Origin: a virus
Taxonomy: Duplodnaviria > Caudoviricetes
Length of the DNA stretch: 47,029 nt
Reading direction: 5' to 3' (one strand)
IMG/VR virus record: IMGVR_UViG_3300025875_000772
Span: 1-47,029 of that record
Positions 247 to 37,333 of the stretch are shown here, one piece after another. The position numbers were made by a program, and so were the translations under genes. The notes under the pieces are model-generated. The model ran no database searches, was not told where the DNA came from, and saw only the letters and a list, made by a program, of their open reading frames with translations. Every line of letters begins with the position of its first letter. The first letter of the stretch is position 1.

Positions 247-2082
247 ATGCCTGAAACTGACCTTTCTCCCGCTCCTACTACTACGCCAGACCAACCCGTA
301 CAGCCCGGTATGGGCGCTATTTCGCACGAGCACGGTACTACCTTTCGCGTGTGGGCTCCCTCGGCCGATGCCGTTTCGCTGGTAGGCCCTTTCAACGATT
401 GGAAGCACGATTCCTACCCTCTTACCCACGAAGCCGACGGTTACTGGGCCGCCGACTTCGCTGACCTCGGCCCCGGTACTGAGTACAAATTCTGGCTGGA
501 TACGCCTACCGGCCAGCTCACCCGCAACGACCCCTACGCCCGCCAGGTAACGCACTCGGCCGGCAACTCGGTGGTACTCGACCCAAATTTTGATTGGGAA
601 GATGACCATTTCGAGATGCCAGCCTGGAATGAGCTGGTGATTTACGAGCTGCACGTGGGCACCTTCAACGCCCCCGACCCCGAGAAGCCCGGCACGTTCT
701 ACGACGTGATTGAGAAGCTGGACTACCTGCGCGATATGGGCATCAATGCCATTGAGGTGATGCCGGCCACGGAGTTTCCGGGCGGCCGCTCCTGGGGCTA
801 CAACCCCGCCCACCCCTTTGCCCTGGAAACCGACTATGGCGGACCGCAGGCCTTTAAAGAGCTGGTGAAGCAGGCCCACCGCCACGGCATTGCCATTATT
901 CTGGACGTAGTATACAACCACTTCGGTCCCGGCGACCTGGACCTGTGGCAGTTTGATGGCTGGTCGGAAAACAACGGCGGCGGCATCTACTTCTACAACG
1001 ACTGGCGCGCCGAAACGCCCTGGGGCCACAACCGCCCTGACTTCGGCCGCGACGCCGTGCGCTACTACATCCGCGACAATGCCTTGATGTGGCTGGAGGA
1101 CTACCGCGTGGATGGCCTACGCGCCGATTCCATCTCCCACATTCGCAACGTAGACGGCTCCGAGGACCCCTCCCGCGACCTACCCGACGGCTGGTCGCTG
1201 ATGAAGTGGGTGAATGAGGAAATCCGTGAGCGTATGCCATGGAAGATTACCATTGCCGAGGACTTGCTGGGCAACGACTACATCACCCGCACGCCCGAGG
1301 ACGGCGGCCAGGGCTTCTCTACCCAGTGGGATTCGGCCTTCGTCTACCCCATTCGCCACGCCATCACGGCCTACTCCGACGAGGAGCGCGATATGCACGC
1401 GGTGGCGGCAGCCATTACCAAAGTGTATAACGGCGACGCCTTCCAGCGCGTCATCTATACCGAGTCGCACGATGAGGTAGCCAACGGCAAATCGCGCGTG
1501 ACGGAAGAAATCATGCCGGGCAATGCCCACACGTGGTTTCCGAAGAAGCGGGCTACCCTGGGTGCCGCGCTGGTGTTCACGTCGCCCGGTATTCCGATGA
1601 TATTCCAAGGGCAGGCTATGCTGGCCGACGGCTTCTTCTCCGACGACCAGCCCCTGAACTGGGAGCACGCCGAGCAGCACAGCGGCCTCGTGCAGCTCTA
1701 CCGCGATATGGCGGCGCTGCGGCGCAACTTCCACGGCAACACGCGCGGCCTGATGGGGCAGTACGTGGATGTATTCCACCTCAACAACGAGAACAAAGTA
1801 CTTGCCTTTGCCCGCCGCGACCAGGGCGGCCCCGGCGACACGACTATTGTACTCGCCAATTTCGCCAATCAAGCCTACGATGCCTATGCCATCGGCCTAC
1901 CCCGCAACGGCGAATGGCACGTGCGCTTCAACTCCGACTGGGAAGGCTACGACGAAGAATTCGGCAATTTCCAGAGCACTGGCACGCACGCAGAGGAAGG
2001 AATTTACGACGACCAACCCTACTATGGCACCTTTGGCCTAGCGCCCTATTCCGTGCTGATTATCTCGCAAGACCCTCACTAA
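247..2082 (+). CDS. Host GH13 glycoside hydrolase with N-terminal CBM48 (branching-enzyme / malto-oligosyltrehalose trehalohydrolase-like)
   Basis: Motifs TFRVWAP, IYELHVGTF, SWGYNP, LDVVYNH, DGLRAD, IAED, SHDEV. Start at ATG 247 preferred over ORF-track 211. Confidence 0.93.
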   Translation: MPETDLSPAPTTTPDQPVQPGMGAISHEHGTTFRVWAPSADAVSLVGPFNDWKHDSYPLTHEADGYWAADFADLGPGTEYKFWLDTPTGQLTRNDPYARQVTHSAGNSVVLDPNFDWEDDHFEMPAWNELVIYELHVGTFNAPDPEKPGTFYDVIEKLDYLRDMGINAIEVMPATEFPGGRSWGYNPAHPFALETDYGGPQAFKELVKQAHRHGIAIILDVVYNHFGPGDLDLWQFDGWSENNGGGIYFYNDWRAETPWGHNRPDFGRDAVRYYIRDNALMWLEDYRVDGLRADSISHIRNVDGSEDPSRDLPDGWSLMKWVNEEIRERMPWKITIAEDLLGNDYITRTPEDGGQGFSTQWDSAFVYPIRHAITAYSDEERDMHAVAAAITKVYNGDAFQRVIYTESHDEVANGKSRVTEEIMPGNAHTWFPKKRATLGAALVFTSPGIPMIFQGQAMLADGFFSDDQPLNWEHAEQHSGLVQLYRDMAALRRNFHGNTRGLMGQYVDVFHLNNENKVLAFARRDQGGPGDTTIVLANFANQAYDAYAIGLPRNGEWHVRFNSDWEGYDEEFGNFQSTGTHAEEGIYDDQPYYGTFGLAPYSVLIISQDPH

Positions 2083-2108
2083 GAAGGTAACTACTTGTTT
2101 TTCTGCCC

Positions 2109-2129
2109 GGTAGCACCTAGTGCGCTACC
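2109..2129. terminator. Hairpin between convergent host gene and repressor
   Basis: GGTAGC...GCTACC stem between two stop codons. Confidence 0.4.
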
Positions 2130-2149
2130 TGTGGTAACCAATCTGGTAA

Positions 2150-2869
2150 CTACGCGGCGTGTTCCGATACCACCTTGTGCATCCGGCGCTGACGCGCGGG
2201 GGCGGTGAAGATGGGACGCACAACACAGCCTTCCTCCAATGCCTGAGCCTCGTCGATTTGTTCGGCGGGGCTCACGTGCATTACAGGGGCGAAGGTGCCA
2301 GGGGCGTACTGATTACCGCTAGACTTTCCCAGTAACAGCGAGAGCTGCTCTTGGCATACGCGGTTGGATCGCTGCGACTCTTCCAGGGCACGATATACCT
2401 TGTCGAGCTGATTGCGCAGGTTGTCCTTTTCGACCTTGTGGCCGTCTATCTCGCGTAGTAGGCCCGCAATAAATTCCTTGGCGTTGCTGGCAGCGGGTGC
2501 AGGCGCGTCGGCTGGGCGGTGCTGGGCGTCCATGTCTTCCATGTTGCCGAGGGGCAGGGCTTTTCCTAGGGCGCCTGGCTGAAGCACCGTAGCCCCCTGC
2601 TTGTTGACTTCGCCGCCGGGAACGAAGGGCGCGAGGCTGCGGCCGTCGCGGAGCATGGAGCCGGTACCCCACAGTACATAGTCTGGGTTGATGTCGGGAT
2701 ATGCTTGCTGAATCGCAAGCATAACAGCGCTACTGGGCCTAGAGCCGCGTTGCTTAATAGCCGATATAGTAGCGGGCTTTATGCCAACTGACTCCGCAAA
2801 AGCACTAGCGTTCTTTATGCTCTTAGAGGACCAGAAAAGCTCCAATCTCTGATAGGGTGTAGTTTCCAT
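2150..2869 (-). CDS. CI-like XRE HTH repressor with coiled-coil C-terminus; no S24 peptidase domain seen
   Basis: ASAFAESVGIKPATISAIK...INPDYVLWGTGSM HTH signature; divergent from the early operon. Confidence 0.85.
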   Translation of the reverse strand: METTPYQRLELFWSSKSIKNASAFAESVGIKPATISAIKQRGSRPSSAVMLAIQQAYPDINPDYVLWGTGSMLRDGRSLAPFVPGGEVNKQGATVLQPGALGKALPLGNMEDMDAQHRPADAPAPAASNAKEFIAGLLREIDGHKVEKDNLRNQLDKVYRALEESQRSNRVCQEQLSLLLGKSSGNQYAPGTFAPVMHVSPAEQIDEAQALEEGCVVRPIFTAPARQRRMHKVVSEHAA

Positions 2870-4757: not shown

Positions 4758-4787
4758 GCTACCTCTTACCTCTTCATTCTCAACACT

Positions 4788-5162: not shown

Positions 5163-5204
5163 TCCTACCACCTTCAATCTCTTACCTCTTCATTCTCAAC
5201 AGCC

Positions 5205-5552: not shown

Positions 5553-6080
5553 ATGCAAGAAATCTGGAAAGATATCGCAGGAGCCGAAGGCTTCTACGAA
5601 ACCAGTAACCTAGGAAAGGTCCGCAGCAAGGACCGGATAGTTATAGGCCGGCGCTACGTCGGCAAGGAGTTAGCCGCCATCATTACGAATAATGGCTATG
5701 TGCGTGCTGGTCTATCCGGCAAAGGAGGTGTGCAATACGTGCACCGCCTCGTAGCGCAGGCTTTTCTTCCTAACCCGTCTGGCTTTACGCAAGTCAATCA
5801 CATCAACGGTGATAAGACGGATAACCGTGCTGTGAACCTGGAATGGTGTAATAACGGCCAAAACCAGCAGCACGCTTACGATCATCTTGGCAAGTCTCGG
5901 AAGGGCCGCATAAGCGGCGAGGCGCATTATAACAGCCGCTTTTCTGACGCTGAAATAATCGCAATACGCGACCAAAAAGGATCCGCTCCTACCCATGTAG
6001 TCGCTGCTCAATTCAACACCAGCAGTGCCAATGTCAGCCTTATCTGGAATAACAAAACGCGCAAGTCATGTCTAATCTAA
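5553..6080 (+). CDS. NUMOD4-HNH homing endonuclease
   Basis: EIWKDI...YETSNLGKVRS (NUMOD4); VHRLVAQAF...VNHINGDKTDNRAVNLEWC (HNH_3). Confidence 0.92.
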   Translation: MQEIWKDIAGAEGFYETSNLGKVRSKDRIVIGRRYVGKELAAIITNNGYVRAGLSGKGGVQYVHRLVAQAFLPNPSGFTQVNHINGDKTDNRAVNLEWCNNGQNQQHAYDHLGKSRKGRISGEAHYNSRFSDAEIIAIRDQKGSAPTHVVAAQFNTSSANVSLIWNNKTRKSCLI

Positions 6081-7789
6081 GCATCCAAACTACTGCCGTC
6101 GCTGCCCACTCTTTAGAATACAATAAAGAGCAAATTGAACTTATTAAGAATACAGTAGCGAAAGGTGCGACAGACAATGAGTTAGCGCTGTTTCTGCACA
6201 TCGCAAAAACTTATGGACTGGACCCTTTTATAAAAGAGGTGTGGTGCATTAAGTATCGCACCACCGACGCGGCCACCATCATGACCAGCCGGGACGGCTA
6301 CCTGAAGATTGCCAACCTGCACCCCAAGATGGATAGTCTGGTGTCGGACACCGTGTGTGAGCAGGACGAGGTAGAGAAGCAGCAAGACGGTTCGGTAGTC
6401 GTGCGCTACGGCCGGCCGCGGGGCATCGTGATTGGTGCCTACGCGCTGGTGTACCGCACCGACCGCAGCCGCCCAGTGTATGCCTACGCGCCGCTCTCGG
6501 AGTACAAAGGCGGCTCCCCTATCTGGCAGAAATACCCCTCGGCCATGATTCTAAAGGTAGCTGAGTCGATGGCCCTGAAACGGGCGTTCTCCATCTCGGG
6601 CCTCGTGACCCAGGAGGAAATCGATATGCAGGCGCCGGCCGAGGCGGGCACCAGTGCCACCGTGGTAGAAGAAGCAAAGCAGGCCGTGGCCTCCATTGAC
6701 TACGCCACCCCGCACCAGCTGGACGAAATCTGCGGGCTACTGAACCACCCCACCATTACGGTGCAGGAGAAGACCAAGATGCTCCTGAACATCAACCGTC
6801 TGGATACCGAGCGCGCTGCACAGGCTATCGTAAAGTTGCGCCAGGCCATTGAAGACCGTTCGGCTGAGGGCACCGAGCCCGACACGGAGTATACCGTTGT
6901 TGCCAGTGCCGAGGTAGTAGAGCAGCCCACAGAGGCCGCTCCCGAGCCCGCCCCGCGTAAGCGTCAGATGATGAGCGACGAGCAGAATGCGACGCTTACC
7001 GCCGTGTTGCAACACGAGTTGCTGAAGCCCCACGAAAAGAACGGCCTCACCATTTCAATGAAGTCGTTCACCTTCAAACAGGCGCAGGATTCTATTGAGA
7101 AGTGGGAGAAAGAGATTCCGAAGCGTGAAGCGAAAGCGGCTGCACAAGCTAGCGGCCCAACCCCAGAGCAGATAGAGCAGGCCGAGACCGAGCAAAAGGC
7201 TGCCGTAGGTGCGTTGTATGATTTCGTGATAGAGCACGACAACGTGCTGGCTATCGAAGACTACCGCCGCTTTACGAGCCTGCTGGACTCTAATGTTGAT
7301 AAGCTGGTACCAGCCAAGAAGCTACGTGATGCCCTGGCAGAAGCTCAGGCACTGGTAGCAAAAAAGGCCGAGCCGGCCGAAGCACCGACCGCCGCGCCAG
7401 CTTCCGCAACGCCGGCTCCCTCCGCTGGACCAGAGCTAAGCAATACCCCAGCCCCTTCCCAGGAAGAAGCTAGAGAGGCTAAGCTGAAGCAGATTATCCA
7501 ACTGCTCACCAGCCATCATGTCACGGAAGGTGAACGGTCAAAGATGCTGCTGAACCTGAACAAGCTCTCGCTAGAAAGAGCAGACGAATCTATTGCCAAG
7601 CTAGACCTCACGATTGCGCGCCGGGCATTCTGCGCCTACGCCAACGAGCATGCTGCTGTGATTGGTGAAGCGGAGCACCAACGTGCCATGAAGCGCTGCG
7701 AGTCGCTGACGGCTGCCGCCTTTGAGTTCGAAGAGGAACTGGACTGGCTGAAAGAATTCGTGCAATCCAAAGGCAAGCAAGCGGCTTAA
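6068..7789 (+). CDS. bet: Bet/RecT-family ssDNA-annealing recombinase with long repetitive C-terminal extension
   Basis: AKGATDNELALFLHIAKTYGLDPF, SRDGYLKIA, W...PSAMILKVAESMALKRAF. Confidence 0.9.
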   Translation: MSNLSIQTTAVAAHSLEYNKEQIELIKNTVAKGATDNELALFLHIAKTYGLDPFIKEVWCIKYRTTDAATIMTSRDGYLKIANLHPKMDSLVSDTVCEQDEVEKQQDGSVVVRYGRPRGIVIGAYALVYRTDRSRPVYAYAPLSEYKGGSPIWQKYPSAMILKVAESMALKRAFSISGLVTQEEIDMQAPAEAGTSATVVEEAKQAVASIDYATPHQLDEICGLLNHPTITVQEKTKMLLNINRLDTERAAQAIVKLRQAIEDRSAEGTEPDTEYTVVASAEVVEQPTEAAPEPAPRKRQMMSDEQNATLTAVLQHELLKPHEKNGLTISMKSFTFKQAQDSIEKWEKEIPKREAKAAAQASGPTPEQIEQAETEQKAAVGALYDFVIEHDNVLAIEDYRRFTSLLDSNVDKLVPAKKLRDALAEAQALVAKKAEPAEAPTAAPASATPAPSAGPELSNTPAPSQEEAREAKLKQIIQLLTSHHVTEGERSKMLLNLNKLSLERADESIAKLDLTIARRAFCAYANEHAAVIGEAEHQRAMKRCESLTAAAFEFEEELDWLKEFVQSKGKQAA

Positions 7790-19672: not shown

Positions 19673-22600
19673 ATGGCTACGCAACAGCAGTACGATCAAC
19701 TTATTGCCGCCTTCGAAGATGGTGGGTACAACACCGCGGCCGAGATGCGGGCCGTCCTGGGCGTCATGGCCAGCGACATCATTGCGCTGCGGTCTGGTGG
19801 CACGCCCTCCGTGCCGCGTTTTGGCGCGGGGCTGCCCGCCAACTCGCTCGGTAAGAACTACGACACGTACACCGACACCAATACGGGTCGCGTCTACCAG
19901 CGCCTGAATGGCGTCTATGAGTTCCAGTACATTGCCAAGGGGGAAGATGGGGGCAAGCCGGTAGCGGGAGTAGACTATCAGGCGCCTAAAAGTGGCGAAG
20001 ACGGCAACGATGGCAACCGCATCCACGACAAGAACTACGCGCCCCGAGCAGCCGACAATACCAGCATAGGCGGGCAAGCCAATTTGGAAGGCGACCAGTG
20101 GTTTTACACGATCAGCCTGAGCAGCTACGAGCGCTACTCCTTCATCGGCGGGCAGTGGACACTGGTTTTTCGGAAAGCTGAGGGGACGACGGTTACGCCC
20201 CCAGCCGCTACCGACACGACCGCGCCAAACCTGACCTTTACCGCGCCCGCGTCGGGCGCTATCGTGAATCCTGGCCAGCAGCTCACGCTCACCTCGATTG
20301 CTACGGACAACGTGGCTGTGACGCAGGTGGTCTACCTGAACGGCACTACGGGAGCGATGCTGGGCACAGCCAACAAGAACGGCAACACCTATACATTGCC
20401 GTTTGTCGTGCCGCAGGCGCTTGGGGCGCTGACGTTGCAAGCGCAGGCCTCCGACGCGGCTGGTAATGTACAAGTGGCCTCGGTGACGCTAACAGTGCAG
20501 GCTGCCACACTGCCCAAGCTCAGCACCCCCACCGGCTACCAGGCATCGGCCACGTCGGCCAACACCATCAGCACGGCGCTAAGCGCTGTTGCCAATGCCT
20601 CGGCCTACGTGTTCGAACTAGCCACCGACAGCGGCTTCTCGCAGAACGTGCAGGCTGCGACGCAGAGCGGCACGACCAAAGCATGGTCAGGACTGACGGC
20701 CAACACGACGTACTATACCCGCGTCAAGGCGCAGGCCTCGGGCTACCAGGATTCGGACTACGCCACGTCCACGGCTACCACACAAGCGGGCGCAGCAACG
20801 CTGGCGGCTGGTCTGACCTTGCCGAACGGCAACAGCACGGTCGTTGGCACCGCTATTCCCTACCAGGCCACAGCCAACGGGGGCACAGCGCCCTACACGC
20901 AGAAGGTAGTAGCAGAAAACACCGCTACGGGTGTGCCTACTACGATCTATGAGGGGAACGGTGCTACCTATTCTAGTAGCTGGACACCGAGCGCGGCGGG
21001 TAGTTTTGCGCTTACCAACACAGTAACGGATGCAGCCGGCACTAGCAAAATTTCCGCGGTGCGTAGTGTTACGGTGAATACAGCAGGGGTAGAAACCACT
21101 AACTACCGCATGTTCACTTTTGATGGCAGCACCACCAACATGGCTAGCCGCCACTGGCTGGCGGGCACATCTACCACGAACTACACCAAGGAAATACCCT
21201 ACTCCTACACGCCACCAGCGGGAACGATGCTTTCGGATGCGTGTCTATGGAACGCCAACGGGATGGTGTATGGCGCGCATAGTGGATACGTCAGCGGGCC
21301 GGATTACTTCTCTAATTCGCTAGTAATATTCCGCGCCTACGTGTCGGCCGATCTGACGAAAACCACCGTATTCGAGGTGGTGCATAAAATTGATATGTCG
21401 GTAGCGGGACGTATCCCAGCAGGTATTGGCGGGTATAGTGGTATTGGCCCTAGTCCAATCGTTTCCTCGCCTGAGTACGTGGCGCGGCCTAACGGGCGTG
21501 TGGGGTTGATTTTCATGTACCAGCCAAACGGGATTATGACGAGCAATAGTTACATTCTCTACATCGAGAGCACAGATGCTACCTGCACGAGCTGGGGTAA
21601 TGCGGCGCTCCTAAGTGGTACCGCAATGCCGTACGACAACGGAGGCGGCAATATTGCGGGGAGTTACATAGACCCGGCTTATTTCTATTACAACGACAAG
21701 CATATGTTGTTGCTGCGCTGCTTCACCACTGGCAACGGAGAGTCAACCGGCATCGGGCAGCGGGTGGTTTCCTCGGCCAACCTGCTAGGGCCCTACAACA
21801 CGGTAGAAAGTGACCTGCGCACACTTACCAATGGCGGCACCAATACGTATGTAAACCGACGCATGGAAGGCCAGTGGATGGAGGTGTTGCCTTCCGGTGG
21901 CCTCCGCTGGCATACGGATGATTACGGTGCGGGGGGAATGCTCTACGCAGACTCTCCTACTGGTTCTCTGTCTCCTACTGCTTTTGGCGCGTTTCAGGTC
22001 GTCGGCAAGCCAAGCACGGCAGGCTATACGTTGCGTCACGCCACGCCTGTACTGGTTACAACCTTTTCAGATAATGTGCTAACGCCTGTCACGCCGCCAA
22101 CCGGTACGCCTACCTTCTCGCTTCGTACGTGGCCGATTGCCGCTGATGGATCGACTTTTGGCTATGAGGTTACGACCCCTGTAGCGCCCGCTACGGCCAT
22201 AAAAATACCAGTGCAGATTTCGAAGACTGCCTCCACAGTAATTGGCTCTGTTGATGTTCCAGCCAATCAGGTAAGAGTTGCCGGCACAGGCACTTCAGAG
22301 CGCGGCCCTAACTCCTACACGAACACGCAAACGCTCTTACCAAGCACCACAGCGGGCGCGGTAGGAGTCTATAATCTAGGCACTGCTTCCTCTTCCTTCA
22401 CCGTTCTCGGAACGCAGGCTGAAAAGACAGGGCCTCCGGTTGTCACGCTACTACTTGGCGAGAAAACGCTGGAAGCAGATCGGGTCAGTTTCCCGGCGTT
22501 GTTTTCAGTAGACCGAATATTGACCCAGCCGCTACGTGTCTACACCAACGTAGACAAAGGCGGCATCGTAGAACAGGTGTTCAACGATATTGCAGTCGGG

Positions 22601-23173
22601 AAAAGCTCCGAAGCCTTTTATGGGTATTCGGAACGCCGCGCAGCGACCTACACCAATGCGCAGGCGTTGGTGGCTAACGCTGCCTATAGCACCGGCAGTC
22701 CGAGTGGTGGCAGCTTTGAGGTGCCTGGACTCGGAGGCTCTACCCCACCACCACCAACGAACGGCGTGCGGCTAGAAATGCCAGTTAGCGGCATGACGTT
22801 TACGCCCGCCCTCAACGCTGCAAACAGTTATCAGGTTGTGAGCGATAACCCAACCAAATATAGCGGGGGCAGCATGGTGTACATGGCTCCCTTCCTTGAT
22901 GGCCGCATAGATAATATGCCTGCGTTCACTGGCGATTCTATCCGCTTCTTAAGTGTCTTGTTCGGCGGTAACCAAGTCGCGTTTGATGTGGTGATAGATG
23001 GGGTGCGCCGCACAGTAGATTATGGGCATCAGTCAACTGCTGACCAGCCGTTTGGCGTTCGATACGAGATAACAGGATTAGGCAGCGGTGTACATAACTG
23101 GCATATAGAATCAAAAGCCGATTATAAAACACCGACTTTTTTGGACGTGGTTGAAGTAGAGGCTTGGGCGTAA
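19673..23173 (+). CDS. Tail fibre / receptor-binding protein with Ig (Big), FN3 and GH43-like beta-propeller domains
   Basis: GAGLPANSLG..YDTY.DTNTGRVY; DTTAP...ATDNVAV; WSGLTANTTYYTRVKAQ; SPEY, IDPAY, MEGQW and RHATP propeller motifs. Confidence 0.75.
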   Translation: MATQQQYDQLIAAFEDGGYNTAAEMRAVLGVMASDIIALRSGGTPSVPRFGAGLPANSLGKNYDTYTDTNTGRVYQRLNGVYEFQYIAKGEDGGKPVAGVDYQAPKSGEDGNDGNRIHDKNYAPRAADNTSIGGQANLEGDQWFYTISLSSYERYSFIGGQWTLVFRKAEGTTVTPPAATDTTAPNLTFTAPASGAIVNPGQQLTLTSIATDNVAVTQVVYLNGTTGAMLGTANKNGNTYTLPFVVPQALGALTLQAQASDAAGNVQVASVTLTVQAATLPKLSTPTGYQASATSANTISTALSAVANASAYVFELATDSGFSQNVQAATQSGTTKAWSGLTANTTYYTRVKAQASGYQDSDYATSTATTQAGAATLAAGLTLPNGNSTVVGTAIPYQATANGGTAPYTQKVVAENTATGVPTTIYEGNGATYSSSWTPSAAGSFALTNTVTDAAGTSKISAVRSVTVNTAGVETTNYRMFTFDGSTTNMASRHWLAGTSTTNYTKEIPYSYTPPAGTMLSDACLWNANGMVYGAHSGYVSGPDYFSNSLVIFRAYVSADLTKTTVFEVVHKIDMSVAGRIPAGIGGYSGIGPSPIVSSPEYVARPNGRVGLIFMYQPNGIMTSNSYILYIESTDATCTSWGNAALLSGTAMPYDNGGGNIAGSYIDPAYFYYNDKHMLLLRCFTTGNGESTGIGQRVVSSANLLGPYNTVESDLRTLTNGGTNTYVNRRMEGQWMEVLPSGGLRWHTDDYGAGGMLYADSPTGSLSPTAFGAFQVVGKPSTAGYTLRHATPVLVTTFSDNVLTPVTPPTGTPTFSLRTWPIAADGSTFGYEVTTPVAPATAIKIPVQISKTASTVIGSVDVPANQVRVAGTGTSERGPNSYTNTQTLLPSTTAGAVGVYNLGTASSSFTVLGTQAEKTGPPVVTLLLGEKTLEADRVSFPALFSVDRILTQPLRVYTNVDKGGIVEQVFNDIAVGKSSEAFYGYSERRAATYTNAQALVANAAYSTGSPSGGSFEVPGLGGSTPPPPTNGVRLEMPVSGMTFTPALNAANSYQVVSDNPTKYSGGSMVYMAPFLDGRIDNMPAFTGDSIRFLSVLFGGNQVAFDVVIDGVRRTVDYGHQSTADQPFGVRYEITGLGSGVHNWHIESKADYKTPTFLDVVEVEAWA

Positions 23174-23183
23174 GGGATGAAAT

Positions 23184-23222
23184 AAAAAGAGTCCTGACCT
23201 ACACAGGCCAGGACTCTTTTTA
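23184..23222 (+). terminator. Intrinsic terminator (bidirectional-type)
   Basis: AAAAAGAGTCCTG...CAGGACTCTTTTT. Confidence 0.85.
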
Positions 23223-23299
23223 AAGAAGTTTGGGATAAGAAGCTACCTTGCCCTTTGTTATACATTTGAGCAAAACTCTATACTGCAAACTTTGAAAGC

Positions 23300-24412
23300 A
23301 TGGTTGACCCGGAAGCACGGAAGCAAATACTAGCCGAGTTTGATGCTCAGTCAAACATTTACGAAAGGCTGGCTGAAAAAATAAGAACTTTGCTTCAGGA
23401 ATTATTAGAATCTCATGGCATATCAGTACATGCGATAACTAGTCGCATAAAAACCAGGAAGAGTTTAGAGAAGAAAATACATAAATTAGGCACAGTTTAT
23501 AAGCAGCTTTCTGATATAACAGATATTGCTGGTGTACGAATTATTACTTATCTGGCTAAGGATGTAGATAGAATAAAGCCAATTTTAGAAGAAGAGTTTG
23601 ATATAGATGTTAGTAATTCATCCGATAAGCGTCACCCTGCCACTGAAAATCAGTTTGGCTATTCATCCTTGCATCATGTCTTATCGCTTAACGCAGCCCG
23701 TGCTGACACACGAGAAAACAACCGTTTTCAAGCATTAAAATTAGAAGTGCAAACGCGTTCTATTTTACAGCATGCCTGGGCTGAAATAGAGCATGATTCA
23801 GGTTACAAGAGTGATGTAGAGGTTAATGCGCGTACATCTAGGCGATTTGCGCGTATTGCGAGCTTGTTAGAATTGGCAGACGAAGAGTTTGATGGTATTG
23901 ATGAAGAAATAAATAATCAGGTACGGGCTAAAGCTATTGCTATAGAGCAGCATCCAGAAAAAGTTGCGTTAGATGCGATATCACTTAAGGCATTTATTGC
24001 GAATGATCCGGAAATAAGGAATTTAGAGCATGAAATGCTTCGGGATAAAACACCACATGGGCAACTTCCAGATGCTAATATGGTAATATACATAAATTGC
24101 ATACAGGAGCTAGGTGTTACAAATTTTGAAGAGATAAAAGATTTGTTTAGAAAGAACCGTGAACTTCTAATCGCTTTTACGGACTTCTGGCTTGATGGAC
24201 CAAAGCATTATGCTATAGCTATGGGAATAAGTATTTATTATTTATGGCTGATTAAGGTAGTATCTAAAGGCAAAAACCTTGTGCACTTTTCTGTTTCGAA
24301 AGAACCTTTTCCCGCTATATTAGGCGACCTTAATAATTACAGTAAAACTTTGGCTCAATTGCAACAGAACGTTAACGCTGCTGAGAGAAGGGTTGATGAA
24401 GCTTCTAAATGA
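23300..24412 (+). CDS. RelA/SpoT-domain small alarmone synthetase-like moron
   Basis: SRIKTRKSLEKK, DIAGVRII, FGYSSLH, EVQTRSILQHAWAEIEHD..YK; own TACATTTG promoter at 23261; AT-rich. Confidence 0.88.
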   Translation: MVDPEARKQILAEFDAQSNIYERLAEKIRTLLQELLESHGISVHAITSRIKTRKSLEKKIHKLGTVYKQLSDITDIAGVRIITYLAKDVDRIKPILEEEFDIDVSNSSDKRHPATENQFGYSSLHHVLSLNAARADTRENNRFQALKLEVQTRSILQHAWAEIEHDSGYKSDVEVNARTSRRFARIASLLELADEEFDGIDEEINNQVRAKAIAIEQHPEKVALDAISLKAFIANDPEIRNLEHEMLRDKTPHGQLPDANMVIYINCIQELGVTNFEEIKDLFRKNRELLIAFTDFWLDGPKHYAIAMGISIYYLWLIKVVSKGKNLVHFSVSKEPFPAILGDLNNYSKTLAQLQQNVNAAERRVDEASK

Positions 24413-24463
24413 ATTCTAAGCATTTCCAGCCTTAGTTTCTTTATTAATAGTTCCCCTCATCCC

Positions 24464-24489
24464 AGCCGCCTGCCACCCGCAGGCGGCTT
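24464..24489 (+). repeat. 26-bp direct repeat copy 1 (terminator hairpin; candidate att site)
   Basis: AGCCGCCTGCCACCCGCAGGCGGCTT, identical to 31215-31240. Confidence 0.9.
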
Positions 24490-24492
24490 AGG

Positions 24493-25794
24493 TTATACAG
24501 GAAAGCAAGCTAGTATTTCGTCGCATTCAGAAAAGCACTCCGTTTTTCCGGCAAAATATTTTTTGGGCTTGTAGGCTAAATGCGCAAAGGTTTCCAGTAT
24601 GCTTTGTTCCCAATCCCATACTGCTGCTGCATGAGTTGACTCATGAAGGGCAAGCACCTCATATTGATAAGCAGCGAGATCTCGCTTAGAATATCTTTTC
24701 TCGATTGAACGAAATGTTATACCAACCTTATAAAACACCTCTTCTTCCGAAAATATCTTTATGAAATACAGAACACTTTTTTTGCCTTTCGCCTGCTCAA
24801 TCCAGTCCAAACGCTTGTTGCCCTGCGCGCAAGTAGGACAGCCTTGCCCGCTCAAGTGGGAATTGGGTTTCTGCCTAAATGCTCCATGTATAGGGCATTT
24901 GATTTCTACCTTAGTCTTGCTTGTGCGGTAACTCACCTGTGAATAGTTGTACGTGTCACCGTGCCGTGTGCGAGCGAGGTCTATAAACCTCTCTTTGGAA
25001 TGCGTCATGTATTTATGTGCGCAAGTCGGGCACCCGGCACCCCGAAAATGCGCATGCGCATACTGTTTAAACTGCCCATGAATGGGACAAATAATGTTGA
25101 CTACGCTACTCGCTCCTGCGTATGCAATCTGTGAGTAGTCGTACTTATTGCCATGAACAACGCGAGCCTTCTCCACGAATTTATCTGCTTTAGGTGAACG
25201 TTTGACGGTCCAGCAGGCAGCGCACCCTCTGCCTTTTATATGGGTATTAGGCGTTTGCTCAAACGCGCCATGTTCAGGGCAGATGATCCTAACTTTATCA
25301 GTTGACCGACTGTACAATACCTGAGAATAATCGTATTTATTACCGTGTATGCCTTGAGATTTAATAACGAATGAGCATGTGTTATCTGTTCGGCTTATAA
25401 CTGCACACGCTTGACACCCCCTGCCTGCCATATGTGATTTAGGGGTTTGTTCAAATGCGCCATGTTCCGAACAAAGTATAGTAACTTTCTTGTAACTGGT
25501 TGTGTAGGATACCTGTGAGTAATCATACTTGTTCCCATGCGCATTTTTAGCCCTGCATAGAAATTCATCCAAAGGCAAAATACGCTTAGTAGTATTCTTG
25601 ATAACTCCACAGGTAGAGCAACCTTGTCCGCCTATATGACTAGCAGGCGCTTGTTTGAACACTCCATGTTCAGGACAAAGGATAGCGACCTTAATGTTGC
25701 TACCCTTGTACACTGCCTGCGAGTAATCGTACCGATCACCATGCACTGCTTTGGCCTTTTCAATAAAATCTTCTGTCGTTAATTTCTTAGGCAT
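24493..25794 (-). CDS. Endonuclease with five DUF723-like Zn-binding repeats and a C-terminal GIY-YIG-like domain
   Basis: Five copies of HG.KYDYSQ..Y.....KV.I.CP.HG.F.Q.P..H..G.GC..C; LYFI...FYKVGIT...IEKRY...WEQSIL...GKTECF. Confidence 0.85.
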   Translation of the reverse strand: MPKKLTTEDFIEKAKAVHGDRYDYSQAVYKGSNIKVAILCPEHGVFKQAPASHIGGQGCSTCGVIKNTTKRILPLDEFLCRAKNAHGNKYDYSQVSYTTSYKKVTILCSEHGAFEQTPKSHMAGRGCQACAVISRTDNTCSFVIKSQGIHGNKYDYSQVLYSRSTDKVRIICPEHGAFEQTPNTHIKGRGCAACWTVKRSPKADKFVEKARVVHGNKYDYSQIAYAGASSVVNIICPIHGQFKQYAHAHFRGAGCPTCAHKYMTHSKERFIDLARTRHGDTYNYSQVSYRTSKTKVEIKCPIHGAFRQKPNSHLSGQGCPTCAQGNKRLDWIEQAKGKKSVLYFIKIFSEEEVFYKVGITFRSIEKRYSKRDLAAYQYEVLALHESTHAAAVWDWEQSILETFAHLAYKPKKYFAGKTECFSECDEILACFPV

Positions 25795-25797
25795 ATT

Positions 25798-26205
25798 CTA
25801 TTCCTCCTTTCTAACATGCCGCAGCACAAACACCCCTTGGGGCAGTGCTGCCAGCACCGATTCAAATTCCGAAAAACATTCCGAAGCGCCCGCGAAGGGC
25901 AGTAAGGGCGTATAGCCCAAGTGGGCGAACTTGCGCAAAATCTTCGCTTCTAGGTCGTATACTCTTCCCGCACTATACGAACTATACCGCGCCAGCGTGC
26001 GCACCGTGTAGGGCATATTCAGCCGCGAAAACCGGGAGGAAAAGCAGAAGGTAATACCCACCTTGTAGAAGGTTTCCCCGTTGCCCGTGAGGCGAATGAG
26101 GTACAGCGTAGCTTTCCTGCCCTGTTGCTGCCCGACCCACGCGGCCCGCGTCCAACCACCCCGGCCACATACAGCCGGGGTGGGAATCGTGATAACGCTG
26201 CCCAT
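25798..26205 (-). CDS. Stand-alone GIY-YIG-like domain, paralog of the neighbour's C-terminus
   Basis: LYLIRL....ETFYKVGIT...DLEAKIL..FAHLGY.P...FAGASECFSE. Confidence 0.8.
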   Translation of the reverse strand: MGSVITIPTPAVCGRGGWTRAAWVGQQQGRKATLYLIRLTGNGETFYKVGITFCFSSRFSRLNMPYTVRTLARYSSYSAGRVYDLEAKILRKFAHLGYTPLLPFAGASECFSEFESVLAALPQGVFVLRHVRKEE

Positions 26206-26206
26206 G

Positions 26207-27460
26207 CTAGTTGTGCGTGAGTACGGCCCCTAATACAGTCAACTGCTCGACAATGCGCTTCGGACTGGTGGAAGAGTAGTTACTATTCATGACCTCCTGA
26301 CTGTGGCCCGCCATACCCGCCGCCAATTCTCCGCCGAATTTATCCCGCATCAGTTGGGAAAAAGTCGAACGGGCATCTTTGTGCTTGAGGTCTTGCAGGT
26401 GAAAACCCTGCGCAGTCAGTTCTTGCGCTACGAGCTTGAGCGTGCGTGAGACGAACGAACTGACGTAGGTCGGTAATTGGTAGTCGTACTGGGCAAGCAA
26501 TTCAGCCGCCTTAGGAAACAACGGTACCCAAAAGGATTTATCCTTGCGCAGCATCTTTTGCCGCTGCATACAGATGCCGAGTACGCCTTCCTCACACTGC
26601 AAAAAGGTGTGCGGGGCTTGGGCAAAGCGGGTATAGTCCACGAAGGAGAGGCCCGTATAGCAACAGAACAAAAACAGGTCCGCCACGCGCTGCACATTCT
26701 CCTTACCGAAGCGGCGCGCTTCTAAGTGAGCTAGTTCCTCCGTGGTTAGATGCCGCTTGGCTTTGCGTTCTGACTCCGATAGGTACACGTAGCGCTCCAC
26801 TAAGCTCGTCTCAATCAGGCCCTCATCAGCAGCAAAGCCTACTACGCGACGTAGTACACTCACGTACCAGCGCACGGTGTCAGCCTGCCAGCCTTGTCCC
26901 ATGCACCAGCGTTCGTAGGTGCGGCACCACGCCCGGTTAATGTCTTGGGCGAGTACGCCCGCCTTACGAATGTGCTGGCAATACAGCGTGAGCTTATCCA
27001 GCGCCTGCCGCACGGAGCGCAGCGTGTTGGGGCGGCGCTTTTTGCCGGGCTGGGCGAGCTCTTCCAAGAACCGTTCGCCTACCGTCAGCAGACGGGCCTC
27101 GTTGTCATCAGGGCTACGCTTACCACGCAGGACTTCGCGTAGTTCCATTGGAGAGGGGTTACCTCCTTGCACTTTGTAGGCGGTGTAGGTTTGATCCACT
27201 CGTAGCAGCCACTTACTCAGGGTCTGATTATCCCGTTTCACGCAGTGTTGCGCAAGTTCGTCGGCACCCTTTTGCACCCGTAGGCGCTGGGTGGGCGCGT
27301 GCCACTCGGCGGCGGTGGCTTGCACGCCGGTGGAGAGTTCGGCCCGGTCAAAGCCGGGTACTTCAATGCGCAGGTAGATCGGGGCCTTGCCCGTTGCGGC
27401 ATGGGCGCGATTCTCCCGCCGCCACAGGTAGGCGGTGAGTTGATGTTCGTACGTGATCAT
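26207..27460 (-). CDS. int: Bacteroidota-type tyrosine recombinase/integrase
   Basis: Arm-binding N-terminus GKAPIYLRI...ELSTG; ADLFLFCCYTGLSFVD, RQK, ARSTF, AGHS, catalytic Tyr in NSNY. Confidence 0.9.
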   Translation of the reverse strand: MITYEHQLTAYLWRRENRAHAATGKAPIYLRIEVPGFDRAELSTGVQATAAEWHAPTQRLRVQKGADELAQHCVKRDNQTLSKWLLRVDQTYTAYKVQGGNPSPMELREVLRGKRSPDDNEARLLTVGERFLEELAQPGKKRRPNTLRSVRQALDKLTLYCQHIRKAGVLAQDINRAWCRTYERWCMGQGWQADTVRWYVSVLRRVVGFAADEGLIETSLVERYVYLSESERKAKRHLTTEELAHLEARRFGKENVQRVADLFLFCCYTGLSFVDYTRFAQAPHTFLQCEEGVLGICMQRQKMLRKDKSFWVPLFPKAAELLAQYDYQLPTYVSSFVSRTLKLVAQELTAQGFHLQDLKHKDARSTFSQLMRDKFGGELAAGMAGHSQEVMNSNYSSTSPKRIVEQLTVLGAVLTHN

Positions 27461-27472
27461 CGGCGTACGCGC

Positions 27473-27973
27473 TTAAGCAGTCAGCAAGTGACGGTGGGCA
27501 ATGCCGGTGGCGTCGAGCCAATCCGTTAACTGCACCAGGTGGGTAGGGCGTACCGTGCTCCTGTCCCAAATAGCCTGCACCAAAGTTTCGATTACGGCCT
27601 CGGCTTCGTCTTCGTCAACAAGGTTGATTCGCAGGAGCGCCTTTGTCTTTTCTTGAGGCGTAATCACTTTGTTGCCGCACAGGCGTACGATTTCCTCCTT
27701 TTGAGCATTGGTAGCGTAGGCCGTAGAGGCTGGGGAGGTGGCTTGTGCCACTTCCCGCTCCAACTCCACGCGGCACACATTCTTGTGCCACAAAGCGAGT
27801 TGGGCTAGGTCTTCGCACTGATACACGCTATCGTTGGCCCGCAGGCGCTCGCCGGCGGTAAAGACGGCGCTGTTCATGCGGTGCATGATGAGGCGTCGGG
27901 TGGTGGAGAGAATGAGGTGGTGGGCTTGGGGAGCAAGCGTTGTCGCACTTGCGGAGGTGGTTGCGGTTTGCAT
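27473..27973 (-). CDS. Hypothetical protein sharing a domain with the prophage Bet C-terminus
   Basis: YATNAQKEEIVRL...ITPQEKTKALLRIN...QAIWDRS vs Bet YATPHQLDEICGL...ITVQEKTKMLLNIN...QAIEDRS. Confidence 0.75.
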   Translation of the reverse strand: MQTATTSASATTLAPQAHHLILSTTRRLIMHRMNSAVFTAGERLRANDSVYQCEDLAQLALWHKNVCRVELEREVAQATSPASTAYATNAQKEEIVRLCGNKVITPQEKTKALLRINLVDEDEAEAVIETLVQAIWDRSTVRPTHLVQLTDWLDATGIAHRHLLTA

Positions 27974-27984
27974 ACCTTTGGGGT

Positions 27985-28067
27985 TAGATAGATGAAAGAA
28001 TCGGGGTTGTCGCCCCGGCTCTGAATCGGGAGGTCACTCGTTGTCGCGGGTGGCCTCTTTCTCTTTC
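27985..28067 (+). ncRNA. Predicted antisense small RNA to the integrase-operon leader
   Basis: TACCTTTG at 27973-27980; two hairpins with loop TTGTCG (28002-28017, 28030-28057), then a T-rich tail. Confidence 0.45.
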
Positions 28068-28076
28068 AGAACATTA

Positions 28077-28183
28077 CAAAGATAAGGACTTTTCTTACGT
28101 AACAAAATACTTAACTAAATATTTTCTTACTTATTTTCTTACTTATTTTCTTATGCTGATATATTAAAAAAATGCTACCTTTG
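28077..28183. promoter_or_regulatory. Divergent promoters separated by tandem 12-bp repeats
   Basis: TATCTTTG on minus (28077-28084), TACCTTTG on plus (28176-28183); TATTTTCTTACT at 28120 and 28132, partial copies at 28144 and 28090. Confidence 0.6.
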
Positions 28184-28190
28184 TTCCACT

Positions 28191-28376
28191 ATGGAAGAGA
28201 AACCAAAACGCACTGGCCGCCCAACAAAAGACCGCGCCCGCCTCAAGAAAGGACGCACTTTGTCTTTCACCGATGCGGAGTATGAGAAACTGGTAGAGCT
28301 GGCAGGGGCCGCAGGTGTTGGGGTAAGCGAGTACGTTATCCTAAAGTGCGGCCTTACGCAGACACCGACTCTTTAA
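28191..28376 (+). CDS. Ribbon-helix-helix (MobC/CopG-like) regulator
   Basis: TGRP...RTLSFTDAEYEKLVELAGAAGVGVSEYV. Confidence 0.8.
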   Translation: MEEKPKRTGRPTKDRARLKKGRTLSFTDAEYEKLVELAGAAGVGVSEYVILKCGLTQTPTL

Positions 28377-28430
28377 AAAGCCCTTGCGCCTGCGCTACGC
28401 GTCAGGATTCGCGGCTAGCGAGCTAGCCTA

Positions 28431-28514
28431 ACTGAGTATGAAAAGCTGGCAGAGCAGGCGAACAGAGGGATAAGTGAACTAGTGATTGAGAAATTTGAGC
28501 TTAATCAGCCCTAA
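28431..28514 (+). pseudogene. Startless relic of a second RHH gene
   Basis: Translates TEYEKLAEQANRGISELVIEKFELNQP*; upstream in-frame stop and no ATG. Confidence 0.6.
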
Positions 28515-28652
28515 AAGGCGGGTTAACACTAGTTAATAGATTGTGTTAGCTGAACCCTCGAAAAAATTATTGCGTTAACTAAATAAGCCGGTTATATTTG
28601 TCACATATATAACCGGCGGTTACATCATATATCGCTCTAAAGACCACAAAAC

Positions 28653-28814
28653 ATGTCATCTGACTTCAACACCCAGCAAGCTAATGAGCCTGTTGCCCGT
28701 GGTGCGAATGTCATCAGCACCATCTTGAAAATGAAGAAAGCCGCCGATGCAGCTATTCGTAATGGCCAAGTAGACAAGCTGAAAGAGGCAGGTTTTAATT
28801 TTATTGTTTCGTAA
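28653..28814 (+). CDS. 53-aa protein missed by the ORF track
   Basis: MSSDFNTQQ...ILKMKKAADAAIRNGQ...GFNFIVS*; downstream of a TATATTTG box at about 28593. Confidence 0.65.
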   Translation: MSSDFNTQQANEPVARGANVISTILKMKKAADAAIRNGQVDKLKEAGFNFIVS

Positions 28815-28866
28815 ACTTGCTTACAAAGGCTGTAGTAGACTACTGTTGCTAGTCGATTAGTATCCG

Positions 28867-29376
28867 ATGTTTGATCCTTACTCAGTAACAGTAGAAAACG
28901 ATTCCCTTTTTTCTTTTGTAACTCGAAACTCTGTACAATATCAAGCCTACTTTTTAGGTGTTCCAACTTCGGAAGCCCCTGAAATAGATGGCTTGATATT
29001 TACGTTTTCGTTCATAGCTAACTACGAAGCTTGTAGTACGTTGCCTCCTGCTGATTATTCTATTAAAGCCACTATTAGGCAGATAATCCGACAGTTTCTA
29101 GAGAAGGATCAAAGCCGTGTGTTGTGCTTTACTTGTGATTCGGGGGACAATAAACATCACAAAAGGCAAATAGCTTTTGAGCGTTGGCATAAGGAAGATG
29201 ATCCGCAACAGCAATACTATTATTGGCCTTTTGCTATTCCAGCACCTTTAGAGGATGATTATCCCACTTTAGGCGGTTATTTTGTCCACAAAGACCACTA
29301 TATGCGAGGCGTCATACAAGAACACTTCGTTGAGTCAGTGATGATGTTCACTAATATTAAGACAATCGCAGCATAG
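28867..29376 (+). CDS. DUF6169-like protein
   Basis: FVT....Y...F; D..IKATI..II..F; LCFTCDSGDNKHHKRQIAFERW. Confidence 0.7.
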   Translation: MFDPYSVTVENDSLFSFVTRNSVQYQAYFLGVPTSEAPEIDGLIFTFSFIANYEACSTLPPADYSIKATIRQIIRQFLEKDQSRVLCFTCDSGDNKHHKRQIAFERWHKEDDPQQQYYYWPFAIPAPLEDDYPTLGGYFVHKDHYMRGVIQEHFVESVMMFTNIKTIAA

Positions 29377-29416
29377 CATGAAAAAGCCCCAACTCACCTG
29401 CTGGGGTTTTTTCATG
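29377..29416 (+). terminator. Intrinsic terminator
   Basis: CATGAAAAAGCCCCA...TGGGGTTTTTTCATG. Confidence 0.8.
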
Positions 29417-29648
29417 GCCTAAACTTTTGTTGCACAGCAGATCAAGTATAGAATAGTTGCCGAAAAAACCACCACCAGGGGGTGGTGAATATATAGGTTA
29501 TGTATCTTACTGTCAATAATTTATATTGATAGTAGTTGTGTATAAATACGTGTTACTTATAGATAATAATGTCTGAACTTGCGGCTACCCGCTGGGGCTT
29601 TTTTGCTACCTTAAGCCCATTCTTAAACCCCTTTATCTCGCAAAGCTT

Positions 29649-29885
29649 ATGGCGTTTCAACAAGGACAAACAGTAATGATGAAAAGCGGTAGTCCTATTA
29701 TGATAGTAGGAAATCTAAAAGACGGTCAATATTGGTGTAACTGGTGGAGCCCTATAGAAAACCAAGTTGCTGGTGCGTTTTTTTCTGAGCACTTGCTAAT
29801 GGCCGTTCATGGACCCAGTGTAGACGACGCCCTGAAATATCAAATTCAGTATGTTGCTGCTTACAAAGGTGGTAGCATCAAATAA
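29649..29885 (+). CDS. YodC/DUF2158-like small protein
   Basis: FQQGQTVMMKSGSPIMIV...CNWW...F....L. Confidence 0.8.
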   Translation: MAFQQGQTVMMKSGSPIMIVGNLKDGQYWCNWWSPIENQVAGAFFSEHLLMAVHGPSVDDALKYQIQYVAAYKGGSIK

Positions 29886-29918
29886 GAAAGGCCCGCTGTG
29901 TAGCGGGCCTTTCTTATT
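29881..29918. terminator. Bidirectional terminator
   Basis: Perfect 17-bp stem AATAAGAAAGGCCCGCT-gtgt-AGCGGGCCTTTCTTATT between convergent genes. Confidence 0.88.
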
Positions 29919-30279
29919 CTGGCGGAATACAACGGCGAATCTCTTCGGCCCGTTTCGCTGCTTCCAAGCCAGTGCAATAACTAATCTTGTTATAGACAAC
30001 CTCATCGTCTCCAATAGTCGTGGTCCAGGGCTTCATATACACCACTGTGTAACCTGGCAGATCAGGCTTCCAGTCCAGATAAAACACACAGGTTCCGTCC
30101 GTATAGTCCACTCGCATCAGCCGTTCGGCGTAGATTTCCAGTCCCAGCATAGCTACCGTCGGGAAGTCCTTCCACATGGCCTCTTCCAGGGTCTTCTGCG
30201 TCATGCTAGGGCCGCCATCTTCGTACGACGGGAGTGTGCCATCTTGGGCCGCATCAAGAACAGGCAGATCGACAGGCAT
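29914..30279 (-). CDS. Hypothetical acidic protein
   Basis: ATG just after TATCTTCG; ends at the terminator. Confidence 0.65.
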   Translation of the reverse strand: MPVDLPVLDAAQDGTLPSYEDGGPSMTQKTLEEAMWKDFPTVAMLGLEIYAERLMRVDYTDGTCVFYLDWKPDLPGYTVVYMKPWTTTIGDDEVVYNKISYCTGLEAAKRAEEIRRCIPPE

Positions 30280-30364
30280 AGGCGAAGATACTACCCCTAC
30301 TCCGACAACCGCAGGATGTATTCAATGACAAGTTAATATATAGATGATTAAGCATTGCTCTATG

Positions 30365-31165
30365 TTAAAGAACTTTTCTGTTGCGAACTTTTTCTATTGC
30401 CGCTACGACCTCGGCTACTACAAGAAGCCCTCCGCAAGCTTTACATGGTAAAGCGCGGTCATGCGGGCATGGTCGAAATCCATTTCCAAGCGGAGTATGT
30501 GCAATAAATTGAAATTGTATGCGATTAGGTGCTTTGCATTTAGGGCAAGGGAATTCTAACAAGATAGCTGGGTCGGTAGGAACTAGTTGTTTTAATAACT
30601 GCTCTAGTTCAGGCCCCGCAGGTATAATGAACCCTTGATTAAAATCTAATGGCTTATTCCAATCAGGCTTTAAAGTACTGAGAATAAGCGCGCGAACAGA
30701 CATCCTGATTGAATGAGTTGAATAGACGGTGGGCATCTTTGCGTTTTGCATACCAAACGCGTAACGAAACCCCTCGAATGCACTATCATTATCTTGTAGA
30801 ATCAAATCAATTTCCTCTTCAATACTTAGCGGACTTTGCCGTAATACCCGCTCGTGTAAAACCATTGAATCTGTTTGAGAAATAGCTTGAAAGAAAAACT
30901 CAATGATTTTTTTATGTTGTGGTTCTACGTCTGAATAGAGTGTATGCAGGTTATGAATTGCAGGAAATTCATTTTTAGGACTTTGGATACTTAATAGACA
31001 CTTTAAGTAGAGCTCTAAAGAGAAAGAACCACATGTAGCAATGGGTATTATTAAGTACGGCTTTTGACTTTTTTCAGGTCCTAATACTTTACAAGCTTCG
31101 TTAAAGTACTCTGCCTGAAGAAAGATCTCGTGAGGATCAGCGGAAAAGTATGTGATTTTTTTCAT
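30365..31165 (-). CDS. HEPN-like domain protein with C-terminal Zn ribbon
   Basis: SFSLELYLKCLL...IHNLHTLY...FEGFRY; CPKC...CKAC. Confidence 0.7.
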   Translation of the reverse strand: MKKITYFSADPHEIFLQAEYFNEACKVLGPEKSQKPYLIIPIATCGSFSLELYLKCLLSIQSPKNEFPAIHNLHTLYSDVEPQHKKIIEFFFQAISQTDSMVLHERVLRQSPLSIEEEIDLILQDNDSAFEGFRYAFGMQNAKMPTVYSTHSIRMSVRALILSTLKPDWNKPLDFNQGFIIPAGPELEQLLKQLVPTDPAILLEFPCPKCKAPNRIQFQFIAHTPLGNGFRPCPHDRALPCKACGGLLVVAEVVAAIEKVRNRKVL

Positions 31166-31214
31166 GGGACTTAATATAGAAATATATCATTCTATCTCAG
31201 TGTCAATAATCCCA

Positions 31215-31244
31215 AGCCGCCTGCCACCCGCAGGCGGCTTTTTT
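31215..31244 (+). repeat. 26-bp direct repeat copy 2 (complete terminator with T-tail)
   Basis: AGCCGCCTGCCACCCGCAGGCGGCTT followed by TTTT. Confidence 0.9.
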
Positions 31245-31261: not shown

Positions 31262-31316
31262 GAGTTACGCTTTCGGCAAGTTCTTTTGCACTGGCTGCGA
31301 GGCAGTAGGATATTTA
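31262..31316 (+). promoter_or_regulatory. Candidate late promoter of the minor tail genes
   Basis: GAGTTACGCTTT at 31262; TAGGATATTTA at 31306. Confidence 0.6.
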
Positions 31317-37311: not shown

Positions 37312-37333
37312 GTGAGTCGGGGTGAATACAGCC

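Follow-up and report, generated by a model that had tools for sequence, protein, structure and literature searches.

In the late region of a Hymenobacter-type prophage, ahead of the tail genes, we identify a 6.75-kb cassette that lies between two copies of a terminator hairpin. The window analysed here is the whole of a stretch of 47,029 nucleotides, positions 1 to 47,029 of the virus record IMGVR_UViG_3300025875_000772, whose contents include a repressor-like gene, an antirepressor, RecT, terminase, tape measure, protease, portal and amidase. Our preferred reading, held with about even confidence, is that the cassette was inserted by its own phage-derived integrase and is a non-replicating, phage-borne element. 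If this is true, it brings to light a Bacteroidota family standing between homing endonucleases, accessory modules and satellites, in which the nucleases are constant and the integrase optional, and which shows interconversion among these kinds of element.

The cassette is bracketed by an exact 26-bp direct repeat with a spacing of 6751 bp (coordinates of all features are collected in Table 1). As the original prediction had claimed, the repeat extends to about 31 bp if one indel is allowed (31 of 32 aligned positions match with one gap). This is far beyond chance, as 50 random 47-kb sequences of similar composition had longest exact repeats of 14-17 bp. The same prediction correctly assigned a T-tail to the right copy and none to the left. 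We used a sample of 274 Hymenobacteraceae-level genomes around genome G001, 33 of which encode a relative of the 673-aa tail gene. The closest of these (G015, 82%) carries at the orthologous position a single exact 26-mer followed by the T-run, the late motif and the 138-aa tail gene, with none of the segment's parts, and its DNA is 79% identical from the hairpin through the tail gene. The segment thus has a flanking block of identity and, in a relative whose left flank is non-homologous, a one-copy site, and the claim that it is an insert is borne out. The empty arrangement that had been envisaged, namely RelA gene, terminator, late promoter and tail gene, was recovered for its last three parts; the RelA gene is missing from G015. 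A comparison of the fibre-to-tail region in 11 sister prophages from nine of the 33 genomes revealed no match to any segment protein between the fibre and tail genes in ten, and a related cassette in the same slot, without integrase, in the remaining one (G001:C8). By eye, a hairpin with a T-run occupies the same position in eight of the 11, and so the site is a native phage terminator. Downstream of it lies the motif GAGTTACGCTTT, which is also found upstream of the terminase gene and the tape-measure/protease pair, as well as of the gene starting at 31321, and from this position is likely to be the late promoter. The hairpin was recovered within three mismatches in only five of the 274 genomes, with the four besides G015 in chromosomal context. 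Scans of viral contigs with the 26-mer and with the 138-aa tail gene returned zero matches each. By eye, 8 bp of the repeat also match the host side of the prophage attachment (att) site, a likeness dismissed as too short.

The segment encodes a leftward operon of four genes, a 166-aa gene, the integrase and nucleases of 135 and 433 aa, separated by gaps of 12, 1 and 3 bp, together with a divergent ribbon-helix-helix (RHH)-like gene and five small cargo genes. The assignment of a tyrosine integrase operon was upheld by PHROG and Phage_int_SAM_5 matches, and that of an RHH regulator in part, through a NikA-like match below the cut-off. The two GIY-YIG-like nucleases likewise match phrog_681, and PF10544 (T5orf172) is detected at E<=0.01 in 11 of 15 family members. 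The T5orf172 domain is hence recognizable at the level of the family and weakly in the window's own 135-aa protein, which reaches E=0.045 only. Y, R and E columns, which we take to be the catalytic residues, are invariant in all 15 aligned members of the nuclease family. PHROGs yielded zero virion-family matches among the nine segment ORFs scanned, as had been anticipated. The supposed defence-like character of the cargo fared less well: none of the nine scanned ORFs matches a defence family in PADLOC, whose sole match is the RelA gene outside the segment (PDC-S33), and for the 266-aa ORF there is a weak structural link to a cluster in which HEPN proteins make up 19% of the members. We found no Phage_AlpA match in Pfam scans of the segment ORFs, no primase or replication gene in Pfam, PHROGs or NCBIfam (and no unexplained ORF long enough to hold one), and no packaging gene in the segment; the term satellite, which the original prediction had applied to it, does not suit the cassette in the strict sense. 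The 166-aa protein may mimic or bind the phage RecT, with which its C-terminal half shares sequence. Its gene is unusable as a marker, because as a query it matches 269 of the 274 genomes, mostly through a conserved chromosomal gene (the tally includes the unpublished G126 and G127, from which we draw no conclusion).

The original prediction had cautioned that this integrase might be the prophage's own and had proposed a search beyond the right end of the window. A metagenome scan recovered the 51,445-bp parent contig, identical to the window where compared, and past the window's right end it indeed encodes a second integrase, 63% identical to the nested one. A 28-bp match (82%) between 2055-2082 and a site about 200 bp upstream of the second integrase marks the prophage att sites, giving a prophage of about 47.2 kb, or 40.5 kb without the nested segment. 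The prophage is thus served by a separate integrase and att sites past the window's end, and the nested integrase is an extra one; it is neither the only integrase nor adjacent to the prophage att, and the caution does not hold. The gene at the left host flank (211-2082) is glgB and that at the right a glycogen synthase by our own reading of Pfam matches or sequence, as is the hemA label in L014; none of these is a database name.

The nested integrase is intact, with the invariant columns of a 16-member alignment all retained, and its Ser-for-Arg motif presumably resembles that of IntDOT. Its closest relative found is the prophage's own enzyme, and P0003, from a 53.8-kb contig, is 54% identical. 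Between the two integrases of this prophage, codon positions 1 and 2 are 70% and 79% identical and 83 of 126 four-fold sites differ (66%). In a quick tree of 33 rows they are sisters (support 84, and 99 with P0003) inside a clade of prophage-end integrases; named relatives of the nested enzyme are from Hymenobacter. Strong matches occur in eight of the 274 genomes, with the gene at a prophage end in seven, as judged by its neighbours. Scans of viral contigs with the integrase and its alignment gave only 21-39% matches, no relative of the clade above 25% identity was present among 50,697 phage records, and no solved relative of the profile was found. Nor did we find a second cassette copy with this clade of integrase in the 274 genomes or the viral and metagenome scans, which do not cover the context of P0003. 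We then mapped att repeats in six of six prophages tried, or seven including the window's own. Their att sites fall in three terminator hairpins, two tRNA-Arg ends, one gene end and one intergenic stretch, and the clade leaves identical cores of 12-26 bp. The cores in terminators (G001, 26 bp; G268, 23 bp; G174, 16 bp) have one hybrid copy broken, with tail or arm lost. This use of terminators is in keeping with the nested repeat and is the chief evidence for insertion by the integrase.

All seven prophages also carry a doublet of the form RGTTACC-N5-RGTTACC, in two cases with 1-2 mismatches, placed 44-64 bp from the core on its far side. The doublet was spotted by eye and a matrix was then built from the six other prophages, with which that of the window's prophage ranks first of 102,802 positions (33.6 bits). 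Its position, together with the arm/core site scheme of the IntDOT-type integrases (PMC2817482), points to an arm-type site. These features bear on a reading in which the segment is the remnant of a second whole prophage that entered the terminator and was mostly deleted, or else the prophage's own integration module. Such an origin would agree with the sisterhood of the two enzymes and with the location of the clade at prophage ends in seven of the eight strong-match genomes. A nested prophage remnant would also place the integrase 200-330 bp from one att and a doublet 44-64 bp from the other, and neither holds. Moreover, the prophage already has an integrase, an att core and an arm doublet, and the genes flanking the nested integrase fit the cassette family rather than a phage end. 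We consider this reading very improbable and largely refuted.

Several observations weigh against insertion by the nested integrase. The matrix gives 3.5 and 0.9 bits at the inner flanks of the element, compared with 2.0 for the background median. A single half-site lies near an end (24588), where 0.4 are expected per 400 bp, and tandem 6-mers sought de novo were absent within the left end and occurred once within the right, which is the background rate. Arm-type sites are accordingly lacking inside the element ends, and of the claim that a satellite uses the terminator as its att site, the terminator stands and use of the repeat by the integrase is putative. The integrase itself lies 1.7 kb from the nearest repeat, without an att-side flank upstream. 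G015 lacks RelA and has a different fibre C-terminus, with DNA similarity ending inside the fibre gene at about 21084; as its left flank is non-homologous, the left end of the segment follows from the repeat alone. In addition, G015 has a second hairpin (C1:2036555-2036580), identical over 29 bp and without T-run, after the fibre gene of an unrelated prophage, which means that identical hairpins can occur with no element between them. This lone hairpin (L198-L200) adjoins an apparent short fragment of an accessory gene. Further, 15 of the 18 genomes that carry the cassette-family marker described below have no slot integrase in the examined loci. Finally, neither a circle joint nor an empty-site joint was seen in the contigs of one run, possibly the source, so that the 6.75-kb circle looked for on the strength of the original prediction did not appear; this is not absence, because contigs drop rare variants.

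On a different reading, RecT-mediated exchange at short homology would have brought in the cassette, perhaps along with RelA and the C-terminus of the fibre, at a hairpin that Hymenobacter phages have in common. The integrase would then be a passenger or act in trans, and the repeat would be no att pair. The phage encodes a RecT, with which the 166-aa protein has a domain in common, and the 26 bp of the repeat lie in the range of 23-27 bp cited as the minimal segment for pairing by Red-beta (PMC3945230). The end of similarity to G015 at about 21084 suggests that the exchanged block may span 21.1-31.2 kb. The lone identical hairpin in the second, unrelated G015 prophage and the lack of arm sites at the element ends are as expected, integrase-less cassettes adjoin diverged duplications of phage genes in G087 and G125, and HE-PICIs reportedly acquire extra helper-type integrase genes (PMC10111431). 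What RecT exchange requires is a coincidence, namely that the sole cassette with this clade of integrase also has an exact terminator repeat in the style of the clade, and the integrase is intact and coupled to its operon. Insertion by the integrase remains our preferred reading; we regard RecT exchange as the less probable of the two, and yet it stays a strong rival because the arm doublet is absent from the ends and the hairpin occurs alone elsewhere.

The regulator-nuclease core belongs to a cassette family of Hymenobacteraceae prophages. Relatives of the 135-aa nuclease are encoded in 18 of the 274 genomes, in 15 of them with at least one copy among virion genes; G022 and G026 have no virion neighbours and in G151 the gene is on a short contig. 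The phages concerned are of different types, one with a tail sheath, and the cassettes occupy several late-region slots. In their common order the regulator comes first, followed by the divergent 166-like gene, the variable genes, the small nuclease and the repeat-rich nuclease, with some copies partial. A slot integrase is found in only three of the 18 (G053, G063 and G151), 22-24% identical to that of the window and from a separate clade. Of six matching viral contigs, four repeat loci already known from the genomes, and one contig, L269, holds a cassette in the window's slot. An order-wide sample yielded the nuclease profile in two of 401 genomes, both already in the set. None of the related cassettes checked for flanks has an exact terminator repeat of 26-bp length, the longest exact match being 23 bp inside a duplicated gene. 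Matches of 14-15 bp to terminator stems beside the G064 and G125 cassettes proved on alignment to be generic stems, and matches of 18 bp in G058 and 19 bp in G057 failed to extend. Two prophages contain two cassette copies each (G087:C64, L173/L174; G125:C10, L175/L176), and in G087 several diverged tail-gene copies adjoin the cassettes.

The constancy of the nucleases rather than the integrase across these 18 genomes, 15 with virion genes nearby, fits a homing process, in which the T5orf172 nucleases would cut cassette-free sister DNA near late-region boundaries and the cassette would be copied in at repair, with regulator, cargo and integrase hitchhiking; the invariance of the putative catalytic columns agrees with this. 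Homing copies DNA without duplicating its target, so homing alone does not explain the exact 26-bp repeat. In favour of homing, published T5orf172 genes that carry DUF723/CapR repeats have been described as nucleases of this kind, located at boundaries of exchange (PMC10448857). The presence of the cassettes in several late-region slots of unrelated phage types speaks against it. We rate homing as an improbable source of the present arrangement.

Assembly deserves mention, as unrelated DNA might have been joined artificially at a repeated hairpin. The Logan contig graph does break at the right repeat, with pieces that end at 31243 and start at 31223. There is also a loose contig end at 31214, with shared sequence onward and different DNA before it; this contig may be a second phage variant without the cassette. 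Set against this, one contig without differences covers 20153-31243 across the left repeat at flat depth, G001:C8 and viral contig L269 hold a cassette of the same type in this slot, and the hairpin is continuous with the tail gene in G015. An artefact is thus hardly credible.

On our preferred reading, a cassette would have captured a prophage-type integrase into its variable slot, and this enzyme would prefer a target resembling the present terminator. Recombination of a hairpin-bearing cassette circle with the phage terminator would leave one copy with the T-run and one without, preserving the terminator and the late promoter, and since both stay intact the phage would not be crippled. The RHH protein would keep the leftward operon off in the lysogen, and induction would lead to expression of the 166-aa gene, the integrase and the two nucleases, the last favouring cassette-bearing over cassette-free phage DNA. 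RHH control, co-induction with the prophage and a drive function of the nucleases are our inferences. As it has no replication or packaging gene, the element would be replicated and packaged within the phage genome and spread mainly inside the packaged 47.2-kb composite. With no arm-type sites at its ends, it may now excise rarely or not at all.

The cassette invites comparison with the HE-PICIs of Enterobacterales (Tommasini, Mageeney, Williams 2023, PMC10111431), which interrupt a late gene, are co-oriented with it, and have an integrase beside the att site, AlpA and a primase. Like them it is a small, integrase-bearing, repeat-flanked element in a prophage late region with homing-nuclease-like DNA-binding genes, and HE-PICIs too can hold helper-type integrase genes. 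Unlike them it lies in an intergenic terminator with its integrase operon on the opposite strand, has neither AlpA beside the integrase nor a primase or replication zone, keeps its integrase internal and resides in Hymenobacteraceae. It is therefore like a helper-embedded satellite in position but is no HE-PICI: the helper-embedded satellites described from Enterobacterales break a late gene, and this family settles at late-region boundaries. The T5orf172 homing endonuclease genes (HEGs) and HEG islands (Barth, Dunham, Seed 2023, PMC10448857) adjoin essential phage genes and, as here, join the nuclease domain to repeated DUF723-type zinc fingers. The present nucleases differ in their setting, as the last genes of a regulated operon in temperate prophages that has a structured leader and is accompanied by a divergent RHH gene, by cargo and, optionally, by an integrase. 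The low-GC block, short shared boundary and RecT-encoding phage recall module exchange by Rad52-like recombinases (De Paepe et al. 2014, PMC3945230), whereas the internal layout conserved across unrelated phages and the intact integrase are unlike exchanged accessory modules. With Bacteroidota arm-binding tyrosine integrases such as IntDOT (PMC2817482) the integrase shares three domains and core- and arm-type sites, and relatives carry Arm-DNA-bind_5 and Phage_int_SAM_5 domains; it differs in belonging to a distinct Hymenobacter prophage clade with short identical cores. In the open-licence literature, at the level of titles and the beginnings of abstracts and with most subscription papers outside it, no paper on such Hymenobacteraceae cassettes was found. 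We raise, with some reserve, the possibility that Bacteroidota prophages harbour a hitherto undescribed class of minimal elements without replication genes, of which the cassette is the most complete member. This class would combine targeting of late-region boundaries in unrelated temperate phages, swapping of integrases from different clades at a single slot, control by RHH and by a twin-hairpin RNA with element-specific loops, and a drive through phage populations by T5orf172 nucleases and a RecT-like domain that spares late expression. The cassette offers a direct test of which agent is the mover, integrase, RecT or nuclease. The work also delimits a clade of prophage integrases that has a clear arm motif and whose att sites are often terminators.

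The operon has a twin-hairpin leader, present in 14 loci, with double changes in nine of 15 pairs and a covariation score reached by none of 500 shuffles. Slid controls were far lower, the shuffles carry no control for relatedness, and three of 17 pattern matches had been removed by eye as spurious before the alignment. The two loops of the leader are alike within most elements and different between elements. Searches against Rfam gave no gathering-level match, with terminator-like matches below threshold only. We consider the leader a candidate new regulatory RNA motif. The 22-bp tandem repeat in the adjoining switch region is likely, we infer, to provide operators. A conserved 29-nt non-coding motif has 14 further occurrences, and in G063 (L265 13256, 18633) it flanks the cassette core on either side as an inverted pair.

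Table 1. Features of the window, in order of position, with strand and remarks
Feature	Position	Strand	Remarks
Left att of the prophage	2055..2151		core in the 3' end of gene 211-2082; partner site beyond the window
Arm-type doublets	2133..2151 (window); L237, L239, L242, L245, L249, L251		near att sites of the Hymenobacter clade
Phage RecT	6068..7789	+	agent of the proposed short-homology exchange
RelA/SpoT-domain accessory gene	23300..24412	+	GC 0.38; left of the segment; none at the G015 site
Left hairpin copy	24464..24489		without T-run; candidate att site
433-aa nuclease	24493..25794	-	zinc-finger repeats DUF723/DUF4379; C-terminal domain and 135-aa nuclease share 43% identity; left repeat 3 bp from the stop codon
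135-aa nuclease	25798..26205	-	T5orf172/GIY-YIG-type domain; cassette-family marker
Tyrosine integrase	26207..27460	-	417 aa, intact; PHROG integrase, Phage_int_SAM_5; Hymenobacter prophage-end clade
166-aa gene	27473..27973	-	first in operon; C-terminal half 52% identical over 58 aa to phage RecT residues 208-265
Twin-hairpin leader	27953..28077	-	covarying stems; conserved
Divergent switch region	28078..28190		AT-rich; 22-bp tandem repeat at 28120/28132
RHH-like regulator	28191..28376	+	61 aa; NikA-like, below cut-off; 55-85% identical homologues in related cassettes
Conserved 29-nt non-coding motif	28397..28425	+	near ends of related cassettes
53-aa gene and DUF6169 gene	28653..29376	+	same pair beside the G001:C8 and G164 cassettes
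Convergent 78-aa (+) and 121-aa (-) cargo genes	29649..30279		around a hairpin
266-aa cargo gene	30365..31165	-	weak structural link to a cluster that is 19% HEPN
Right hairpin copy	31215..31240	+	T-run, scored as terminator; identical to the single copy of G015; candidate att site
Late motif	31262..31273	+	common to regions before terminase and tape-measure/protease genes; intact despite the insertion

Elsewhere in the prophage, the RelA/SpoT-domain gene to the left of the segment, which has the PDC-S33 match, is possibly an alarmone-type defence gene of the prophage. The 355-aa gene contains iteron-like repeats (9899-10010) that likely mark the replication origin. A 23-bp exact repeat is present in the early region (4763-5201) and a 21-bp repeat in the 202-aa late gene (44927-45037). 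ARAGORN called no tRNA at L083 4050-4350, beyond the right end of the window, where tRNA-like phrases and then a hairpin follow the last late gene. The tape-measure gene (34012-37347) is on the opposite strand, divergent from the protease-capsid operon with a doubled late motif between them, and the same layout is seen in G015.

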